A stretch of 63,707 bases of DNA, the filler included. It is 9 parts of 9 records of this genome, joined end to end, with 100 filler letters (N's around TTAATTAATTAA, not from the genome) between each part and the next. Parts side by side here need not be neighbours in the genome. Positions count along the whole stretch, not along the records: positions 44,055 to 50,327 come from SRR31147125_51610; 8 more parts are not named here. One strand, written 5' to 3'. The notes beneath the pieces are model-generated. The model saw only the letters and a list, made by a program, of their open reading frames with translations. It searched no databases and was not told where the DNA came from. Position numbers and translations under genes: made by a program. Shown here in pieces: positions 7,701 through 58,309 of this stretch; position 1 is the first letter of the stretch; the number at the start of each line of letters is the position of its first letter.

Positions 7701-7800
7701 NNNNNNNNNNNNNNNNNNNNNNNNNNNNNNNNNNNNNNNNNNNNTTAATTAATTAANNNNNNNNNNNNNNNNNNNNNNNNNNNNNNNNNNNNNNNNNNNN
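7701..7800. other. Artificial contig linker (also at 16107-16206, 24420-24519, 31194-31293, 36487-36586, 43955-44054, 50328-50427, 58210-58309)
   Basis: N44-TTAATTAATTAA-N44 with stops in all six frames; GC content and gene content change abruptly at each one. Confidence 0.99.
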
Positions 7801-16106: not shown

Positions 16107-16400
16107 NNNNNNNNNNNNNNNNNNNNNNNNNNNNNNNNNNNNNNNNNNNNTTAATTAATTAANNNNNNNNNNNNNNNNNNNNNNNNNNNNNNNNNNNNNN
16201 NNNNNNGAGTTTCGATCGGTTCGTTTTCGACACTCACTTAAAAGGTAAAAGAGGCAGCAGATGCCTCCTCAAAAATGCACCCGGGTAAGCGCTAAATGGA
16301 AGGGATGGAAAAATCACACCGAACATATTGACAGCGTAAGGCTTTATATTTAAATGTTTTCTATGTCAACAAGGTTCCTCAACAAAGGATAAGAGATACG

Positions 16401-24391: not shown

Positions 24392-24519
24392 ATAAGGCCA
24401 ATCCCCCAAAAGAGCCCCCNNNNNNNNNNNNNNNNNNNNNNNNNNNNNNNNNNNNNNNNNNNNTTAATTAATTAANNNNNNNNNNNNNNNNNNNNNNNNN
24501 NNNNNNNNNNNNNNNNNNN

Positions 24520-31123: not shown

Positions 31124-31877
31124 ATTTGCACCTCGCTTTTAAATAAAAGTGATCTACCTACGTGATGTTATCATCGATAAAATCCGACACAGANNNNNNN
31201 NNNNNNNNNNNNNNNNNNNNNNNNNNNNNNNNNNNNNTTAATTAATTAANNNNNNNNNNNNNNNNNNNNNNNNNNNNNNNNNNNNNNNNNNNNAAAAATT
31301 TCTTAATCTTATGAAATTTTAAAAGCAGGTTTTGTAGTTATTAATAACAATTAATGTGGGAATACTTTCTGGAGCCCAGCATCGTTGATGCTCTTTTTTA
31401 GACGTATACCGGGATTGTAATAAATACTTATCTTTCGAAGGTATATCCTTTGTCTCTGCCATAACTTCGCTACTAATCATCGGTTAAGTTGAGCCTATTT
31501 TTCAAACCTCACAATATTACTTCCTGTCAATTTGTTAGCGAGAACATTCTCTAGCGCTATAATAACAATACTAATTTCTGGTTCACTCAGCGCAGGGAAT
31601 TTTTTAAATTTCCTTTATAAACTCGTCAATTGTTTATTTTCTTTATTAATAACATTCACATAATACTTTTTTTTACCACCGCCTGCAATTCAAGAGAGAT
31701 TGTTAATTTTTCGAATCTGCATGGGATTGAGTCTTTGGAAAATTTTTGTAAAAACCAAATAAACAAATATAAAATGTCTTTAGAACTTGTTGGTATTTGA
31801 GAAATAAAATCCTTGCTTTTAACCGACAAGTAAGAAAATCTTATACTAAAATTTATTCATTTCAAAATTTTCACATT

Positions 31878-36486: not shown

Positions 36487-36586
36487 NNNNNNNNNNNNNN
36501 NNNNNNNNNNNNNNNNNNNNNNNNNNNNNNTTAATTAATTAANNNNNNNNNNNNNNNNNNNNNNNNNNNNNNNNNNNNNNNNNNNN

Positions 36587-43790: not shown

Positions 43791-44054
43791 ATTTAAACGT
43801 TTAAACGCTTTACACGGTAAAAGAGACTGTAAAGTAATAAATATAGTAGAAATAGAATCACTTTTGTCGAGATATAACCAGGCGGTATTTGTGTTTCGTT
43901 TTGATTACTGATTTGAGAACGCCTGTATTTTTGGGTTTCGTGCGCAACATCCCCNNNNNNNNNNNNNNNNNNNNNNNNNNNNNNNNNNNNNNNNNNNNTT
44001 AATTAATTAANNNNNNNNNNNNNNNNNNNNNNNNNNNNNNNNNNNNNNNNNNNN

Positions 44055-47134: not shown

Positions 47135-48752
47135 TCATGCGGTGGATGACGAATTCTCACCGCTGACCCGGGAGGGCGCGAAGCAAAACGGATCCTTGTG
47201 GGTAAAAATGTCCTGTTTCAGGCTGTAGGCCATCGCCAAGCAACCCCGGCAGACCATATTCAGTGTGCATTGGCGGCAAGCCGCCACTCCGTTTCGAAAT
47301 CGTTCGGCACGTTCGCTGTGGTAAATATCGTAGAGGGTGGATGATGGAACGGACCCTATAAGCGAGGGGAATTTCCTGCAAGCGTGCACTTCACCGTCTG
47401 GCAGAAGGGCCAAAAATTAAATGCGGCACCGCATCCATGCCCCGTACATCCGCCAAAGGGGGGCAGTCCTTGCTCCTCCAATACAATGTTGATCAGGTTA
47501 TCCTTGAGTCCCAGGATGGGGTTCCCCGTCGTGGCGGCGTGATACTCGCCCAAAAACGCTTGGAATACCGATGGGTCCGGCATCAGTAGACTGGCACCTT
47601 CGCCCACGGTGGAGAGACGGTTGAACGTGAAGAAGTCCACCCGCGTCCTGAGCATTTCCGCCAGCGGCAGCACCTGATCGATGTTGTTGCGGGTCAGGGT
47701 CAGCATCACCATGGCATAAATTCCCAGCGTGCGCAGTTCATCCATGAAGGTGAGGGAACGCTTAGAATGACCCTCGCCGCGAATCTGATCGTTATGCACC
47801 TGCAAGCCTTCGAGGCTGATCTGGTAGAACAGGGGGGGAGCGATGTTCAGGATTTCGCGGATCCTTTGTTTTGGGGCGGGGTTGCCAAGAATGGCGACAC
47901 CGAAACCGTAGTTCGCCAGCGGACCGATAAACAGAATCAAAATAGGGATAAAGCAGGGGGTTGCCGCCGGTGAATGAGATTTGGCCGCGTACGTGCATCC
48001 GGCGGCAGAAGCTGTAAAAATCATCCAGAATGCCCATGGCCGTGTCAAGGGCCAGCGGTGAGCGTTGGCTGCGATCGTAACAGTGCTTGCAGTGCAGGTC
48101 GCAGGATTGCGTGACATGCCATTGCAAGGTGAAAACATCGCTCGAGAGAAATGGCACAAGGTTTTCTGGCACCGGTATGTCCTGCCTGCGTCGCACGCGG
48201 GAAGCCGGGCTGATCAGAATGCCCTGCTCGACGCCCCGGTCAATGGCGCTTTGGATCTCACCGACAGTGACCTTGCCGATTTCGGCCGCTTCCCTCGGAT
48301 CGACGCCATCTACGGTGAGCTTCAGTGCCAACAGGTCGATGGGTTCTGCCTCACGCACCATCTTTCGACCTGATCGGGGATGACACCAGATCATGGCATG
48401 GTTTTGCTCCTGAACCGGTTCGGGACCCTGCTTGTCCGATTGGATCAGTGTTGTCAGATGCCTCCACGCTAACGGCACCAGCGTCAATGTGGGGTTGACC
48501 ACGGTGGCGGACACCGGTGAGGGCGGAGTCTCGCCCTGCTCGCCTTTTTCGTAAAGGACCTGTTCCAGGCGTGCCAAATCAACAATGTAGGGGGGTAGTT
48601 CAAATGACGCACCCAGGTGTTCAAGGGCATCAGGAAACGACCCAGGGGGGGATCGTTTCCATTGCCACCAGCACCCTGCCCCAGGTTTGCTTACCAAGGG
48701 TGCGACGGCAAGTGGAAAATATTTCGCCGTAGGGCTTCACAATATCGGACAT
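47135..48752 (-). CDS. sbtM: Selenobiotic-family radical SAM/SPASM RiPP maturase; three frameshifts (~48648, ~47916, ~47414)
   Basis: QWHVTQSCDLHCKHCYDRS (CX3CX2C), FTGGNP, QISLEG, GGCTGHGCGAAFNF-LALLPDGEVHACRK and CRQC…VCRGC (SPASM). ATG at 48752, just downstream of the precursor. Confidence 0.88.
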
Positions 48753-48812
48753 CAGGTCAAATGGCAAAATAGGTAGTAGAAATTCCTACTCGGGGTGGTG
48801 AGCTGATTTTCT

Positions 48813-48829
48813 TCACGCAACCTGCGTGA
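48813..48829 (-). promoter_or_regulatory. SECIS-like hairpin for Sec72, located in the 3' UTR
   Basis: TCACGCA-GGT-TGCGTGA, loop starting 20 nt after the UGA. Confidence 0.78.
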
Positions 48830-48836
48830 TGATTGA

Positions 48837-49058
48837 TCAACTTCAGCCGCTTTTGCCAGGTTGCTTTTTCTGTGTGTCGGTGCCACCGGCACCGGAAGTC
48901 CCGCCACTTCAGCCGCTTGTGGAGCCACCGGCTCCAGCTTTATCGCCGCTTCAGGCGCTTTTCCCGCCTGCACAGCCGCTTACCGTTAACGTGGACCCTG
49001 CAATCAGTCCAGCGATGCAGAAGCCGGTCAGGACTTTTTTGAGGTCGTCTACATCCAT
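48837..49058 (-). CDS. sbtA: Selenocysteine-containing RiPP precursor, 73 aa with three UGA read as Sec
   Basis: MDVDDLKKVLTGFCIAGLIAGSTLTVSGCAGGKSAUSGDKAGAGGSTSGUSGGTSGAGGTDTQKKQPGKSGUS*; CAGGAG RBS; TGA at 48951-53, 48909-11 and 48843-45; SECIS-like hairpins; adjacent rSAM gene. Confidence 0.9.
48878..48894 (-). promoter_or_regulatory. SECIS-like hairpin for Sec50
   Basis: CGGTGCC-GGT-GGCACCG, loop starting 21 nt after the UGA. Confidence 0.78.
48921..48935 (-). promoter_or_regulatory. SECIS-like hairpin for Sec36
   Basis: GGAGCC-GGT-GGCTCC, loop starting 21 nt after the UGA. Confidence 0.78.
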
Positions 49059-49638
49059 GGTTTACTCCTGAGGTGGAAAAGGTTTTCCTTCAACACCCTC
49101 CTGGGGTAGGAGCTTGAAGGGCCGTTGCCCGGGTGTGGGGCAAAGATGGCATCGATAATATCAATGCTAAAAACATAGGTGATCGTTAAAAGCTATCAAA
49201 TGGCCATTCGCATGTCAACCTTACGGATAGACGGGCAATAATCACAGCGCACTGAAAAAATCGTTCCACAGTGCCAAGTCCCAAATCCATCAATAGCGAT
49301 CCCGATTTGGATTCTCCCAACAACCGATATGCGATTGCCCTGGACACCCCCCTGACAAGCACCGTATCTTTCTTTGGATCTGCCTTTATGTGTAAATGAA
49401 TTGCCCAAAATATGTACAATTATATATTCATTTTAGTTTAAAAAATAACAATATAATTGAATTTTATTTCCAAATGCTATTAATTTGTACTTGACAAATT
49501 TACTTATTTATTCGTACAAATTGTAAGTCATGGGTACAATCAAAAATCGTTTGCCGGTTTTCAGCTACCTTCTATATCTCCATGAATGCCAGTCACCCAT
49601 TATCGTTTAACGCAGTTTAAATGAAGAAAGGGGACCGC

Positions 49639-50327
49639 ATGTCTGCCACCGGCCAACTGAAACGGGAAATCGGCCTCTTTTCGGCCATCGCCATCGTCGT
49701 GGCCAACATGGTCGGCACCGGCATCTTCACCACCTCCGGTCTCATTCTGCAGGAAGTCGGCAGTCCCACGCGATTGCTTTGGGGCTGGCTGGTCGGCGGG
49801 GCCTTCGCCCTGTGCGGTGCCCTGTGCTACGGTGAGCTGGGCGCCCGCTACCCCGAAGCCGGCGGAGAATATGTTTATATTCGCGAGGCATTCGGCAAGC
49901 CCCTGGCCTTCCTATCGGGCTGGATATCGTTGATCGTCGGTTTTTCGGCCCCCATCGCGGCCGGGGCGATCGCCTTTGCCACCTATCTTCTGCGAGCTGT
50001 CGGCATCGCCACCGATATGGCGCCCGCGATCGTCGGCTCCGGTGGTCCAATTCCTGGTTTTTCTCTGCCCATGGTGCTGGCCATCACCGTGGTGATCCTG
50101 TTATCGGTCCTGCACGCCACCAGCCTGCGTGTTGGCAGCCGGGTCCAGAACCTGTTGACCCTGTTCAAGATCGCGGTGGTGATATCCTTCATTGTCGCCG
50201 GTTTGCTTTCCAAGGGCGGCAATGCCAGCCATTTCGGCATGGGCGGTTTATCGGGAAGCCTGTTGGACGCCCGCTTCGCCGTGGCATTGATTTTCATCAG
50301 CTTCGCCTACAGCGGCTGGAATGCGGC
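49639..50327 (+). CDS. APC-family amino acid permease, 3'-truncated
   Basis: LKREIGL, VANMVGTGIF, YGELGARYPEAGGEY and FAYSGWN motifs. Confidence 0.92.
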
Positions 50328-50427
50328 NNNNNNNNNNNNNNNNNNNNNNNNNNNNNNNNNNNNNNNNNNNNTTAATTAATTAANNNNNNNNNNNNNNNNN
50401 NNNNNNNNNNNNNNNNNNNNNNNNNNN

Positions 50428-51975: not shown

Positions 51976-53985
51976 ATGAAAATTAGACTGATTTTATTGC
52001 TGTTGATTATTCAAAATGTTTCGGTAGCACAAGTTAAAAAAGGTGCGTTTACCGACCCGCGTGATGGTAAAGTTTATAAAACAATTACCGTTAATGGCTA
52101 TACATGGATGGCTGAAAACCTGAATTATGAAATTGCAGGTAGTTGGCATTGGGGTGATAATCCTGTCAATGGCGAAAAGTATGGACGTTTATATAAGTTT
52201 AACACGGCTTTGAAAGCTGCACCTGCCGGGTGGCATGTTGCTTCCGATGAAGAATGGGATGCCTTGGAAAAGGCTGTAGGTGGAAATGAAATTGCCGGAA
52301 AGTATTTAAAGAGTACTGATAGCTGGGCAGAAAATGGTAACGGTTCAGATAAAATAGGTTTTTGCGCATTACCCGGTGGCGACCGTTATATCGATGGAAC
52401 GTATCGGCATCTGGGAAAACAAGGCTGTTGGTGGTCGGTTGGAGCAGGTGTAAAACAAGTTGCCAATCGTAGACTTATGGGATATGATTATGATTACGTC
52501 TATAATCATGAGCGTGGTTTGGGATATGCACGTTATGTACGTTGTGTTAAAGATTATCCCAAAGAAAAACCAAAGTTTGAAGCATCCATTGAATCTTTAA
52601 AACAGTATGAATGTCCTGAATGGTTTCGCGATGCAAAGTTTGGAATATATGTAACCTGGGGAGTATTTTCGGTAGCTGAGTTTGGAGAATGGTATCCCCG
52701 CTATATGTATTGGGAAGGCACCGATGTTTATCAGCACCACTTAAAAAACTATGGGCATCCATCAGAATTTGGGTACAAAGATTTTATTCCGATGTGGAAA
52801 GCCGAAAAATTTGACCCCGATGCTTTGATAGCCTTGTTTAAAGAAGCAGGGGCAAAATATTTTACACCATGCGCCGTACATCACGATAATTTTGATTTGT
52901 GGAATTCGAAATATCACGAATGGAATGCTGTGAATATGGGACCGAAGAAAGACATTATTGGAATGTGGAAAAAAGCAACACATAAAGCGGGTTTACGTTT
53001 TGGTGTAACCACACATTTGGCACGCAGTTATACATGGATGAATACTGCAAACTCAGCCGATACACGTGGTCCGAAAAAAGGAGTGCCTTACGATGCATTA
53101 CAAGGCAAGGGAAATGGTCTATATCCATCAAACGATGGGCAAAGTACCATGCTGAATCCTCAGGAAGATTCGCCTAGAGCATGGCGGGAAAGCTGGTTTA
53201 ATAGAATAAAGCAGCTTATTGACGACTACCAGCCCGACCATATGTATTTTGATGGTGCCGTACCCTTTGCAGGCAGCGATAAAGGGCAAACAGGAATGGA
53301 CCTTATGGCACATTATTACGATACACGCCCCGAGGGTTTCTTGTGTTACAAACAAAGGCGTTCGGGTATTTTTGTTGAGGGAATGGGAACGCTTGACCAC
53401 GAACGTGGAAAAGCTGAGAAAATTTTTAAGGAACCCTGGCAAACGGATGATGCGCTTGGCCCGTGGAGCTACATAAAAGATGCAACTTATATGACACCTG
53501 ATTTGGTAATCGATAAATTGGTTGATATTGTAAGTAAAAACGGAAATATGCTTTTGTGTGTTCCGTTGAAAGCTGAGGGAACTCTTGACGACGAAACCAT
53601 ACAGATATTGAAAAACGTGGGCGATTGGTTTAAAATGAATGGTGAAGCAATTTATGGTTCGCGCCCATGGCATACTTCAGGAGAGGGTGAAAGTGGTATT
53701 GGTGATTGGGACCAAAAATCGCAAATGACTTCTCGTGATATTCGGTTTACTACAAAGGGTAACACGCTTTATGCGATTGTTTTGGATTGGGCAGATAAAA
53801 ATAACCGCGTAACAATTAATAAGCTTGGTAGCGAAAAATTGAAAGCAGGTAAAATAAGAAGTGTTGAAATGATTGGCTACGGTGGCAATTTAAAATGGGA
53901 ACAATTTGGCGACAGGCTACAGGTGCAGTTTCCTAAAAAGAAAGTTGGCAACTATGCCCATGTGTTAAAAATTGAGATGGAATAA
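51976..53985 (+). CDS. FISUMP (Fibrobacter major paralogous) domain fused to GH29 alpha-L-fucosidase
   Basis: FTDPRDGKVYKT…WMAENLNY…YGRLY…VRCVKD, then PEWFRDAKFGI, HHDNFDLW, YFDG and DIVSKNGNMLL. Confidence 0.88.
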   Translation: MKIRLILLLLIIQNVSVAQVKKGAFTDPRDGKVYKTITVNGYTWMAENLNYEIAGSWHWGDNPVNGEKYGRLYKFNTALKAAPAGWHVASDEEWDALEKAVGGNEIAGKYLKSTDSWAENGNGSDKIGFCALPGGDRYIDGTYRHLGKQGCWWSVGAGVKQVANRRLMGYDYDYVYNHERGLGYARYVRCVKDYPKEKPKFEASIESLKQYECPEWFRDAKFGIYVTWGVFSVAEFGEWYPRYMYWEGTDVYQHHLKNYGHPSEFGYKDFIPMWKAEKFDPDALIALFKEAGAKYFTPCAVHHDNFDLWNSKYHEWNAVNMGPKKDIIGMWKKATHKAGLRFGVTTHLARSYTWMNTANSADTRGPKKGVPYDALQGKGNGLYPSNDGQSTMLNPQEDSPRAWRESWFNRIKQLIDDYQPDHMYFDGAVPFAGSDKGQTGMDLMAHYYDTRPEGFLCYKQRRSGIFVEGMGTLDHERGKAEKIFKEPWQTDDALGPWSYIKDATYMTPDLVIDKLVDIVSKNGNMLLCVPLKAEGTLDDETIQILKNVGDWFKMNGEAIYGSRPWHTSGEGESGIGDWDQKSQMTSRDIRFTTKGNTLYAIVLDWADKNNRVTINKLGSEKLKAGKIRSVEMIGYGGNLKWEQFGDRLQVQFPKKKVGNYAHVLKIEME

Positions 53986-58123: not shown

Positions 58124-58309
58124 ATTTGATATTTTGTTTTGCCAGATTGAATAATACTATGTATATCCGCGTTGTATTAGCATTAGCACGTCATGCTGTC
58201 CGGCAGCTGNNNNNNNNNNNNNNNNNNNNNNNNNNNNNNNNNNNNNNNNNNNNTTAATTAATTAANNNNNNNNNNNNNNNNNNNNNNNNNNNNNNNNNNN
58301 NNNNNNNNN

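Follow-up and report, generated by a model that had tools for sequence, protein, structure and literature searches.

Predicted SECIS hairpins downstream of three putative selenocysteine codons in an sbtA precursor gene

To our knowledge, SbtA/SbtM is the only RiPP system described so far with genetically encoded selenocysteine (Sec). Bacterial SelB requires an adjacent hairpin, and dual coding is a general and known property of bacterial SECIS elements. In Escherichia coli fdhF, the SECIS is a stem-loop located immediately 3' of UGA140 (...UGC-A21-G22-G23-U24-C-U-GCA, numbered from the U of UGA) which requires G23/U24 and a bulged U. Both SbtA and its SECIS have been published before: a SECIS is placed directly 3' of the recoded stop codon and at least two Sec are attributed to the SbtM-associated peptide (PMC9204691, PMC11002830), and TIGR04081 has been tabulated as a 2-Sec family under the name 'selenobacteriocin' (PMC13188914). 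A consensus for bacterial SECIS elements (bSECIS) comprises a loop of 3-9 nt, a stem of 4-16 bp, a G as first or second loop nucleotide, mostly with G or U after it, a spacing of 16-37 nt and an MFE (minimum free energy) no higher than -7.5 kcal/mol (PMC13188914). PMC8704476 says nothing about bacterial spacing, and PMC3834832 and a mycobacterial preprint provide no spacing values. The literature searched contained no description of one hairpin per UGA, of GAGG[ST] spacers dictated by the RNA, or of a UGA stop two codons past the last Sec; Haft & Basu (2011) and Lewis et al. (2021) may cover these points.

The gene analyzed here, sbtA, is encoded in the minus strand of the window, i.e., the whole 63,707-nt stretch of DNA under analysis, filler included (Table 1). 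Its assignment as an SbtA precursor gene is supported by the match of its product to the TIGR04081 SbtA leader (46.6 bits, cut-off 30.5; its residues 1-26 cover positions 1-26 of the 27 in the profile) and by the adjoining predicted gene sbtM, situated 60 nt 3' of it and split by frameshifts in the assembly. The gene was intact and collinear in a full-length alignment with 14 close homologues; codon 36 was U in 14 of the 15 aligned clade members (Cys in L053) and codon 50 was U in all 15. The three predicted Sec codons display the small-residue Sec motif (contexts in Table 1), and Cys took the place of Sec at equivalent positions in L053, L062, L035, L039, L043, L052, L061, and in copy 2 of L072. 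The leader match, the predicted maturase gene directly 3' (frameshifted in the assembly), Sec in a G/A/S-U-S/G motif, and a SECIS directly after the recoded codon, as described in PMC9204691 and PMC11002830, are shared with the known SbtA/SbtM systems (TIGR04081/TIGR04082). In contrast, the window gene presents three predicted Sec codons vs. 2 in the review table (PMC13188914), and a Sec context S-[GA]-U-S vs. the published GGUG/SGUG. Standard gene callers cut sbtA at codon 36; correct annotation and expression of the precursor depend on knowing its Sec UGAs and its C-terminal end.

Table 1. Location of the sbtA and sbtM features within the window.
Feature	Position	Strand	Remarks
sbtA CDS	48837-49058	minus	ATG at 49058; 73 codons including 3 UGA predicted as Sec; UGA74 taken as stop
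AGGAG, putative Shine-Dalgarno-like motif	49065-49069	minus	6 nt 5' of ATG; read from the sequence
UGA36, predicted Sec codon 1	48951-48953	minus	Context KSA-U-SG
UGA50, predicted Sec codon 2	48909-48911	minus	Context TSG-U-SG
UGA72, predicted Sec codon 3	48843-48845	minus	Context KSG-U-S
UGA74, presumed true stop	48837-48839	minus	Separated by 14 nt from the hairpin 3 loop
UGA82, fifth in-frame UGA	48813-48815	minus	Within the 3' arm of hairpin 3
Predicted SECIS hairpin 1, UGGAGCC-GGU-GGCUCCA	48920-48936	minus	Translated within A-G-A-G-G-S-T
Predicted SECIS hairpin 2, CGGUGCC-GGU-GGCACCG	48878-48894	minus	Translated within S-G-A-G-G-T-D
Predicted SECIS hairpin 3, UCACGCA-GGU-UGCGUGA	48813-48829	minus	Untranslated sbtA-sbtM spacer
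sbtM, radical SAM/SPASM thio(seleno)oxazole maturase	47135-48752	minus	Three frames in the assembly

A first-pass annotation of this DNA had assigned to each UGA a hairpin of its own, and the coordinates, sequences and spacings that it gave were all confirmed on the minus strand, with the loops 21 nt from UGA36, 21 nt from UGA50 and 20 nt from UGA72 (loop G at +25, +25, and +24 for hairpins 1, 2, and 3, counted from the U of UGA). Each hairpin consists of a perfect 7-bp stem closed by a GGU triloop, which was both the MFE and the centroid structure obtained with RNAfold (the 17-nt hairpins 1, 2, and 3 reached -10.7, -11.3, and -8.2 kcal/mol, respectively), and all the printed bSECIS features were found in the three of them in relation to UGA36, UGA50, and UGA72. 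As with fdhF, they are stem-loops immediately 3' of a UGA, and they share core and register with its element (GC-A-GGU-...-GC); unlike fdhF, they are shorter and perfectly paired, have a triloop instead of a 4-6 nt loop and lack the bulged U; moreover, two of them are one codon further from the UGA and one is untranslated. The core GC-A-GGU-G-GC occurs in SbtA family members, its G lying at +22 or +25; many SbtA hairpins carry the G at +22, the position of fdhF G22. Several Sec codons in one short ORF occur also in eukaryotic selenoprotein P, where two SECIS in the 3'-UTR act at a distance on all the UGAs (PMC8659212), in contrast with the adjacent hairpin per UGA of the window.

Energies compared with those of 200 dinucleotide shuffles gave a less uniform picture. 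Over 45 nt the difference was clear only for hairpin 3 (z = -4.8, no shuffle as good), with z = -1.2 for hairpin 1 (24 shuffles folding as well) and z = -1.8 for hairpin 2 (10 shuffles), whereas the 17-mers yielded z values of -3.4, -2.9, and -4.3 for hairpins 1, 2, and 3 (1, 6, and 0 shuffles as good, respectively). The covariance model R1 scored hairpins 1 and 2 at 22.6 and 25.6 bits, its training set having included the three hairpins of the window. An Rfam scan of positions 48500-49300 on both strands (E ≤ 10) retrieved no SECIS family and two chance-level matches (6C RNA and mir-4928); we know of no Rfam family that models short bacterial SECIS hairpins broadly. Folding energy alone is a mixed case against chance; the comparative evidence is decisive.

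For this comparison, we assembled a family set of 68 SbtA genes, made up of the window gene and 67 homologues from 64 of 80 loci. Among Sec-context UGAs, 151 of 168 had a bSECIS-like hairpin 3' of them, as did 7 of 24 Cys codons of equivalent context and 2060 of the 14855 TGA trinucleotides taken as background. When the hairpin was defined more strictly (6 bp or more in the stem and a G[G/U] loop located 17-24 nt from the codon), the counts for these loci became 118/168, 0/24, and 344/14855, respectively. The enrichment had Fisher P values of 8e-12 and 2e-135, which are not exact, the sites being phylogenetically related. The remaining 17 of the 168 Sec-context UGAs in the family had no consensus hairpin at 16-37 nt; therefore, one hairpin per UGA is not universal. 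The number of Sec varied among relatives, from all-Cys precursors to five.

Covariation, which the first-pass annotation had proposed to look for among sbtA homologues, was present: the score over 124 distinct 21-mers was 0.501, as compared to 0.179 for shuffled sets (none of 500 reached the observed value) and to at most 0.143 for slid partners. At pair 6-16 of these 21-mers we counted UA 72, CG 34, AU 10, GU 5, and UG 3 times, and never an unpaired combination. The percentage of paired positions in the hairpin-centered alignment (A1) is inflated because its segments were picked for having at least 5 pairs; this bias bears less on the covariation counts and on the alignment anchored at the UGA (A2). 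The latter, built on the last Sec codon of 18 relatives, gave a consensus helix of 7 bp with compensatory change at 5 of the 7 pairs. These data support the recurrence of the hairpins after predicted Sec UGAs across the SbtA family, with compensatory changes. It had also been claimed that the stems vary while loop and spacing are conserved. Structure does covary and the spacing is the norm, in that 143 of 166 Sec-class UGAs show the loop G at +20 to +26 and 21 of 23 terminal ones at +13 to +18; the loop, in contrast, is G[G/U]N in the family and not strictly GGU (GGU 29, AGGUA 26, AGGUG 22, GGC 13, GUU 9, GUC 7, and others, among 147 detected hairpins that were each required to fit the bSECIS loop pattern).

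Hairpins 1 and 2 would also be translated, as G-A-G-G-S and G-A-G-G-T, and being inside the reading frame these spacers would therefore be constrained mainly at the RNA level. Dual coding of the GAGG[ST] spacers, tied to the RNA hairpins as the first reading of the sequence had suggested, is supported because the silent wobble base of the first Gly of the motif G[AT]G[GS][ST] covaries with the first base of Ser/Thr, the two pairing in 61 of 62 occurrences. Synonymous entropy was lower in stem codons than elsewhere (0.39 vs. 1.28 bits; Mann-Whitney P = 0.002), with 0-0.35 bits for the stem codons of hairpin 2. One could argue instead that a Gly/Ala-rich repeat is under selection as protein, GAGG[ST] serving SbtM or the mature product, and that the hairpins arise from it as a side effect and not as recoding signals: the codon string GGN-GCN-GGN-GGN has an intrinsically high GC content and can pair in part with itself, hairpins 1 and 2 did not significantly exceed shuffles in stability over 45 nt, and there was no SECIS match in Rfam. 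We regard this as very improbable. Hairpin 3 is untranslated and of unrelated sequence, and has the same shape, loop and spacing; the silent sites covary, and GGU accompanied Thr in 46 of 47 cases whereas it represents 17.7% of background Gly codons (GGA, 18.6%). The motif appeared after 59 of 168 Sec UGAs vs. 1 of 24 Cys codons, motif and hairpin being both lost in paralogues and orthologues on a switch to Cys (for instance L072 copy 2 and L062), and in other relatives different peptides (GSAVST, DAGGI, GAVGT) still encode a hairpin with the core GC-N-G[GU]N-N-GC. Under dual coding, part of the SbtA peptide sequence would be set by RNA structure and not by peptide function, and for engineering purposes Cys variants could drop GAGG[ST]-type spacers.

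Taking these results together, we consider it very probable that UGA36, UGA50, and UGA72 of the sbtA mRNA are read as Sec, each through its own SECIS of the E. coli type, that UGA74 is the stop, and that sbtM comes next. The sbtA product would serve as a ribosomally made precursor for a thio(seleno)oxazole peptide, and sbtM would encode its radical-SAM maturase. SelB would bind each SECIS, which would hold the tRNA at the right distance for delivery of Sec when the upstream UGA enters the A site; after translocation, the ribosome would melt the hairpin and proceed to the next module of UGA plus hairpin. Hairpin 3 would be placed after the stop, with UGA74 two codons past Sec72 and 7 nt before the stem. 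By the time UGA74 occupies the A site, the ribosome should have taken in the 5' arm of the stem, leaving no intact hairpin at the right distance for SelB, so that release factor 2 would terminate there; the product would be a 73-residue precursor ending in ...K-S-G-U-S. This makes the sbtA locus a clean and well-supported case of the standard bacterial mechanism, which does not overturn the current understanding.

The assignment of UGA74 as a stop, with two hairpins coded inside the peptide and one past its end, agrees with the initial interpretation and is the most likely one, because the sequence downstream is not conserved, the frame shifts among relatives, and the loop spacing of terminal UGAs is short. 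Tails after the equivalent of UGA74 were unrelated and ranged from 0 to more than 50 codons, the same hairpin being read as TQVA, RRLRD or CARSA, and 1-nt indels occurred between this codon and the hairpin in 6 of 18 relatives. UGA74 could also be Sec, hairpin 3 serving both UGA72 and UGA74 and the peptide ending in ...G-U-S-U-SIITQVA at UGA82, or both forms could be made; we find this unlikely. The doublet UGA-NNN-UGA is kept in 17 relatives, and in L005, L018, L055, and L069 the second UGA is directly followed by TAA/TAG, which would fit a Sec-ending peptide too. Nevertheless, no homologue has Cys at the UGA74 position, sister genes have TAA/TAG there, and the mostly-Cys L035 and L043 retain at this place a lone UGA without a good hairpin. 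Two nearby UGAs apparently share one hairpin in L023, L028, L029, and L068 (loop G at +22 and +40), and the same arrangement was seen in L060 and L063; in all these cases, however, both UGAs stay at +20 or beyond, whereas the 14 nt that separate UGA74 from the loop of hairpin 3 fall below the 16-37 nt of the bSECIS consensus (PMC13188914). The proposal that hairpin 3 recodes UGA72 and not UGA74 is thus supported, at the level of sequence, by this spacing and by the unconserved tails. No preference for UGA as stop was detected in the 68 SbtA genes (TAG 24, TGA 23, TAA 20, undetermined 1). The pair UGA72/UGA74 offers a natural test of how close a UGA may lie to its hairpin for recoding through SelB.

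In practical terms, a UGA followed by the core GC-N-G[G/U]N-N-GC with the loop G 20-26 nt from its U would be annotated as a Sec codon, and a UGA closer to the hairpin than this as a stop; for engineering, the SECIS may be placed 3' of the stop codon. A bolder reading, which we hold tentatively, as conceivable though somewhat short of probable, is that the SbtA core is an array of self-contained RNA modules of UGA plus SECIS, whose translated form, GAGG[ST] and the like, has little or no role at the peptide level. If true, module number would evolve freely between none (all-Cys) and five, and the family would calibrate the reading window of SelB, a loop G located between +20 and +26 (+31 to +40 where two UGAs share a hairpin) meaning Sec and one at +13 to +18 meaning stop; this would let a UGA stop lie safely in the 'shadow' of a SECIS just two codons past Sec. 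As a still bolder sub-case, UGA74 may be partly recoded, giving two C-terminal isoforms.

The position of hairpin 3 within the 60-nt sbtA-sbtM spacer would also suit a transcription terminator, an attenuator or an mRNA-stabilizing element. RNAfold predicted for it a lower helix, in which AGUUGAU (including UGA74) pairs with AUCAGCU, with a total of -16.5 kcal/mol over 45 nt; analogous pairing was seen by eye in some relatives, and the helix was discarded as it is absent from the RNAalifold consensus of 18 relatives. That this extended structure (z = -4.8) serves mainly one of these functions seems to us hardly credible: no T-tract follows hairpin 3, a terminator scan of 48600-49400 gave 0 sites, the consensus of the 18 relatives lacks the lower helix, and in both loop and spacing from UGA72 hairpin 3 agrees with the coding hairpins and the family norm.

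Regarding the integrity of the locus, TIGR04082 matched two ORF fragments of sbtM with 266 and 255 bits, each below the cut-off of 350 bits because the gene is split by three frameshifts. A tblastn search with the SbtM of L001 yielded four collinear segments (frames -1, -2, -3, and -2; 57-78% identity), with breaks near a G7 run (~48646) and a T5 run (~47415). Three frameshifts distributing sbtM over three frames could mean that the cassette is decaying and that the hairpins are relics without present function in the organism, a view that we consider decidedly improbable. The frameshifts lie at or near homopolymer runs in a draft of short contigs with N44-TTAATTAATTAA-N44 linkers, which indicates sequencing error; the breaks in sbtM are probably assembly errors at homopolymers. 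In addition, the four segments, at that identity to an intact relative, are free of in-frame stops, and sbtA itself is intact, collinear with its homologues and endowed with three perfect 7-bp stems.

ARAGORN found no tRNA gene within the window. SelB scored above the cut-off in 4 of the 5 genomes of relatives searched, including the close relatives L001 and L003; there was no link between all-Cys SbtA and loss of SelB, which was present in the genomes of L052 and L061. A lipobox was tallied in 49 of the 68 SbtA genes with an over-permissive pattern, and we mention it as a passing lead. Finally, a 5-bp helix was observed directly 3' of UGA50 and, by eye, in only some of the relatives.

The sbtA gene was read directly from the sequence and, with TGA translated as U, gave MDVDDLKKVLTGFCIAGLIAGSTLTVSGCAGGKSAUSGDKAGAGGSTSGUSGGTSGAGGTDTQKKQPGKSGUSUSIITQVAURKSAHHPE*, with in-frame TGA at codons 36, 50, 72, 74 and 82. 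The NCBIfam model TIGR04081 ('SbtA family thio(seleno)oxazole RiPP natural product precursor') matched residues 1-26 (46.6 bits against a cut-off of 30.5). The first-pass annotation had named one GGU-loop hairpin after each of UGA36, UGA50 and UGA72; all three were present with the sequences it gave and with UGA-to-loop distances of 21, 21 and 20 nt, respectively, and RNAfold, the check it had proposed, recovered them as the MFE and the centroid fold alike, whether given 45-nt windows or the full 196 nt. Its observation is confirmed, and its interpretation of one SECIS element per UGA is supported. The loop of hairpin 3 was 14 nt from UGA74, and UGA82 fell inside its 3' arm. As isolated 17-mers, hairpins 1, 2 and 3 reached -10.7, -11.3 and -8.2 kcal/mol (z of -3.4, -2.9 and -4.3, respectively). 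Within the GC-rich 45-nt context, 24/200, 10/200 and 0/200 shuffles folded as well, hairpin 3 being clearly beyond the shuffles and hairpins 1 and 2 not clearly so; these results being mixed, the SECIS case does not rest on folding energy alone. RNAfold also added to hairpin 3 a lower helix that takes in UGA74 (-16.5 kcal/mol, z -4.8), and similar pairings (GCUGA/UCAGC, UGAAAC/GUUUCA) were seen by eye in several relatives; this helix was absent from the RNAalifold consensus of 18 relatives. Hairpin 3 has no T-tract and was not scored as a terminator in a terminator scan.

Coordinates of the features discussed, counted along the whole stretch
Feature	Position	Strand	Description
sbtA	49058-48837	minus	ATG at 49058; precursor gene up to UGA74
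AGGAG	49069-49065	minus	upstream of the sbtA ATG
SbtA residues 1-29	48972-49058	minus	N-terminal 'leader' region
Hairpin 1	48936-48920	minus	UGGAGCC-GGU-GGCUCCA; 7 perfect pairs, GGU triloop
Hairpin 2	48894-48878	minus	CGGUGCC-GGU-GGCACCG; 7 perfect pairs, GGU triloop
Hairpin 3	48829-48813	minus	UCACGCA-GGU-UGCGUGA; 7 perfect pairs, GGU triloop
Hairpin 3 with lower helix	48794-48842	minus	lower helix AGUUGAU/AUCAGCU
sbtM	47135-48752	minus	TIGR04082; ATG at 48752
Contig carrying sbtA	44055-50327		
Amino-acid transporter ORF	49621-50379		cut by contig end
FISUMP-domain ORF	51976-53985	plus	669 aa, on the next contig
Linkers	7701-7800, 16107-16206, 24420-24519, 31194-31293, 36487-36586, 43955-44054, 50328-50427, 58210-58309		N44-TTAATTAATTAA-N44

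Relatives were collected by scanning genome contigs with the N-terminal 269 residues of the maturase SbtM, which gave 227 confirmed stretches; the best 80 of these 227 were taken as loci (labelled L001 and so on), mostly from Desulfobacterota and Nitrospirota MAGs, with a top identity of 58%. Their six-frame translations, with TGA treated as a sense codon, were searched by jackhmmer with the window leader. This yielded 67 SbtA genes spread over 64 of the 80 loci, with sbtM immediately following in nearly every case; the flanking sequence retrieved for the remaining 16 loci gave none. Several in-frame UGAs per gene, in the context [SGAT][SGAT]-U, were present in almost all 67 genes, and Cys occupied equivalent places in L035, L039, L043, L052 and L061, in parts of L062 and L053, and in the second copy of L072. 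Real Sec codons are typically recognised by such Sec/Cys interchange. SelB scored above the curated cut-off in four of the five relatives' genomes searched, among them the genomes of both close relatives that were tested, L001 and L003. Whole UGA-plus-hairpin modules were duplicated in tandem in L076 (L076:2562-2860), L021, L045 and L077; in L076 the copies of SGSTGAGGTQQEQTTPQKPASGU are identical, and L045 carries five modules, suggesting that the SbtA core expands when an RNA/peptide cassette is duplicated.

The bacterial SECIS (bSECIS) consensus printed in a 2026 review sets four criteria: a stem of 4-16 bp capped by a 3-9-nt loop; a G within the first two loop positions, as a rule with G or U after it; a UGA-to-loop distance of 16-37 nt; and an MFE <= -7.5 kcal/mol (PMC13188914). 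Hairpins 1, 2 and 3 agreed with all four. The loop of E. coli K-12 fdhF, read from the sequence after UGA140, is A21 G22 G23 U24 C25 U26, flanked by UGC/GCA. Like fdhF, the SbtA hairpins have a GC-N-G[G/U]N-N-GC core (consensus nnnGGTGCAGGTnGCACCnAn, 124 distinct elements), and many SbtA relatives also have the loop G at +22, whereas the hairpins of the window depart from this register (G at +25, +25 and +24). A detector was used that accepted only perfect stems (5 bp or longer, with G-U counted as a pair) carrying a 3-7-nt loop that begins N?G[GT]. By this detector, a hairpin followed at 16-37 nt in 151/168 Sec-context UGAs, 7/24 Cys codons in the same context and 2060/14855 of the remaining TGA trinucleotides across the 80 loci; the corresponding counts were 137/168, 5/24 and 825/14855 at 17-24 nt, and 118/168, 0/24 and 344/14855 when a stem of at least 6 bp was also required, p values from Fisher tests on these counts being indicative only because the sites are related by descent. 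A covariance model built from the family hairpins, the window's own three included, returned over the 63.7-kb window exactly hairpins 2, 1 and 3 (25.6, 22.6 and 20.9 bits, respectively), followed by a hit at 12.5 bits (E = 1.4). An Rfam scan gave no SECIS match. Hairpins 1-3 are very probably functional SECIS elements for UGA36, UGA50 and UGA72.

Of the 147 distinct hairpins detected, 8 were removed for a loop of 4 or 7 nt and 15 as exact duplicates, and the 124 distinct 21-mers that remained were put into an ungapped, loop-centred alignment. Their covariation score was 0.501 vs. 0.179 ± 0.011 in shuffles (0/500 shuffles reached 0.501) and at most 0.143 with the 3' partners slid; cells changed on both sides numbered 254, against 105 expected. 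Pair 6-16 was UA in 72, CG in 34, AU in 10, GU in 5 and UG in 3, with none unpaired, pair 4-18 was GC in 65, AU in 32, CG in 15, GU in 7, UA in 2 and other in 3, and pair 3-19, beyond the five pairs required for detection, was paired in 102/124 with six pair types, the percentage paired, but not the diversity of pair types, being inflated because the 21-mers were picked for hairpin formation. In a check free of this ascertainment, the 52 nt from the last Sec UGA of 18 relatives were aligned by anchoring on the UGA, and RNAalifold again gave the 7-bp helix, 5/7 of its pairs showing compensatory changes. Covariation, which the first-pass annotation had set as a check, was thus found in both sets. 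The three UGA-plus-hairpin modules are of the canonical bacterial type, conserved, covarying and tied to Sec, not Cys.

Two Sec-context UGAs 3-6 codons apart appeared to share a single hairpin in L023, L028, L029 and L068 (U40/U46), L060 (U38/U41) and L063 (U58/U61), with the loop G at about +22 from the nearer UGA and +31 to +40 from the farther; if this reading is true, one SECIS serves two codons, both inside the consensus distance range. No consensus hairpin was detected for several upstream Sec-context UGAs (L064 and L074, both copies each, L078, L073, L067 U39 and L056 U33). These were mostly in Nitrospirota SbtA genes, where the sole good hairpin, AUAGUGC-GGUC-GCACUAU, follows the last UGA, at least 57 nt from the earlier one. 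Imperfect stems may have escaped the detector, or these codons are served in another way.

Translation of bacterial SECIS elements is textbook knowledge. Hairpin 1 is read as GGA-GCC-GGU-GGC-UCC (G-A-G-G-S) and hairpin 2 as GGU-GCC-GGU-GGC-ACC (G-A-G-G-T); in both, the wobble base of the first Gly codon, a silent site, pairs with the first base of codon 5. When the motif G[AT]G[GS][ST] was located by peptide only, not folding (62 occurrences, 21 distinct 15-mers), these two bases were A:U in 12, U:A in 46, G:U in 3 and mismatched in 1 (paired in 61/62), and the third bases of codons 4 and 5 were C or U in 62/62. The loop codon was GGU in 49, GGC in 11, GGG in 2 and GGA in none, against a background in long ORFs of the same loci of 17.7% GGU and 18.6% GGA. 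Among conserved four-fold codons in a codon alignment of 15 close relatives, mean third-position entropy was 0.39 bits in six stem codons vs. 1.28 in fifteen others (one-sided Mann-Whitney p = 0.002). The motif occurred within 13 residues after 59/168 Sec UGAs vs. 1/24 Cys codons. In Cys lineages or paralogues the spacer differed and the hairpin was gone (L072 copy 2 vs. L051; L062 vs. L065 and L029), and the sole Cys site with the motif, L053 C35, kept a 5-bp relic and is apparently a recent Sec-to-Cys change. Other clades encoded the hairpin via different peptides (GSAVST, DAGGI, GAVGT), which indicated that the RNA is the conserved object and the peptide follows it. Dual coding explains a repeated peptide motif in SbtA, and the earlier idea that the GAGGS and GAGGT spacers are dictated by the RNA is supported by the wobble pairing, the low stem-codon entropy and the occurrence of the motif after Sec, not Cys.

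The sequence after the UGA74 position had nothing in common among relatives, with tails from 0 codons (TAA/TAG directly after the second UGA in L005, L018, L055 and L069) to >50. The nucleotides of hairpin 3 were read as TQVA, RRLRD or CARSA in different relatives, and 1-nt indels between the UGA doublet and the hairpin occurred in 6/18 relatives. Sister genes (L006, L016, L054, L056, L062, L065, L067 and L071) ended ...G-U-S or ...G-U-N followed by TAA/TAG at the same place, and no homologue had Cys at the UGA74 position. Taken together, the unconserved tails, the indels, the sister TAA/TAG and the lack of Cys indicated that UGA74 is probably a stop, and hairpin 3 would therefore be untranslated and lie past the stop, as had been proposed. 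Across 68 SbtA genes the stop codons were TAG in 24, TGA in 23, TAA in 20 and undetermined in 1, so that UGA is not preferred as the SbtA stop. With UGA classes set by peptide context and comparison, not spacing (by hand, four were reclassified as terminal and two as Sec), the loop G of Sec-class UGAs was at +20 to +26 from the U in 143/166 and at +28 to +48 in 13, no hairpin being detected for 10, and that of terminal UGAs was at +13 to +18 in 21/23; for the other two (L011, L075) the detector chose a longer stem farther downstream, and a SECIS-type loop starts at +15.

In the mechanism that we propose, the lower part of the SECIS structure would be unwound as the ribosome nears, Sec-tRNA would be delivered once the UGA is in the A site, and the element would refold after the ribosome has passed. 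UGA74 has only 7 nt to the stem and, given the length of the mRNA channel, the 5' arm would already be inside it; SelB would then find no element both intact and correctly spaced, leaving termination to RF2. The minimal SECIS of E. coli reportedly follows an 11-nt spacer rule, with contacts at G23 and U24.

According to two reports, the SbtM-associated peptide has been put forward as a selenopeptide whose recoded stop codon is directly followed by a SECIS, later annotations having at least two Sec, and SbtM turns Gly-Cys/Sec into thio(seleno)oxazole in vitro (PMC9204691, PMC11002830); the 2026 review lists TIGR04081 as 'selenobacteriocin', with motif SGUG and 2 Sec (PMC13188914). Since the family and its SECIS are already in print, the window's gene adds one more member to a known family and relies on the standard bacterial mechanism. 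An explicit one-hairpin-per-UGA layout, RNA-dictated GAGG[ST] spacers with wobble-to-Ser/Thr covariation, and a UGA stop kept inside the 'shadow' of the last SECIS were not found in the literature searched, which covered sources in part; the family's two primary papers may contain some of these. Mechanism and family are known, and within them sbtA stands out as an instructive case of unusual clarity that also provides a useful series of natural spacings.

The N-terminal region of SbtA has a KK motif, an 18-residue hydrophobic stretch and then a lipobox-like L/V-x-[GAS]-C (TVSGC here), which a permissive pattern found in 49/68 SbtA genes; some clades have AxA-like sites (AHA-GSGU, AQA-ADK) in its place. 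Judged by these motifs, the 'leader' looks like an export signal, and instead of a classical leader-cleaved RiPP the precursor may be a selenopeptide that is exported or lipid-anchored. At L010:2735-2737 (sbtA codon 29, Olavius algarvensis Delta 4 symbiont MAG) an in-frame UGA replaces the lipobox-position Cys (TLSA-U-ATGK), with no consensus hairpin within 37 nt and the next one, belonging to U36, 41 nt away; sequencing error, a pseudogene and Sec at the lipidation site are all candidate explanations.

The sbtM gene opens 60 nt past hairpin 3 and is split over three frames in this assembly, two of its ORF fragments scoring 266 and 255 bits with TIGR04082. Searching by tblastn with an intact relative's SbtM gave four collinear pieces (frames -1, -2, -3 and -2; identity 57-78%) without internal stops, the frame breaks being near 48646 (G7 run), ~47915 and ~47415 (T5 run; a relative implies T6). 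Genuine gene decay is another reading of a gene broken in this way and is less likely than sequencing error, probably at homopolymers. Eight identical linkers chain short draft contigs in the window, and genes flanking a linker therefore need not be genomic neighbours. No tRNA gene was found within the window. An amino-acid transporter ORF is truncated where the sbtA contig ends, and an ORF on the next contig, unrelated to the sbtA finding, carries an N-terminal FISUMP domain (TIGR02145, 143 bits).
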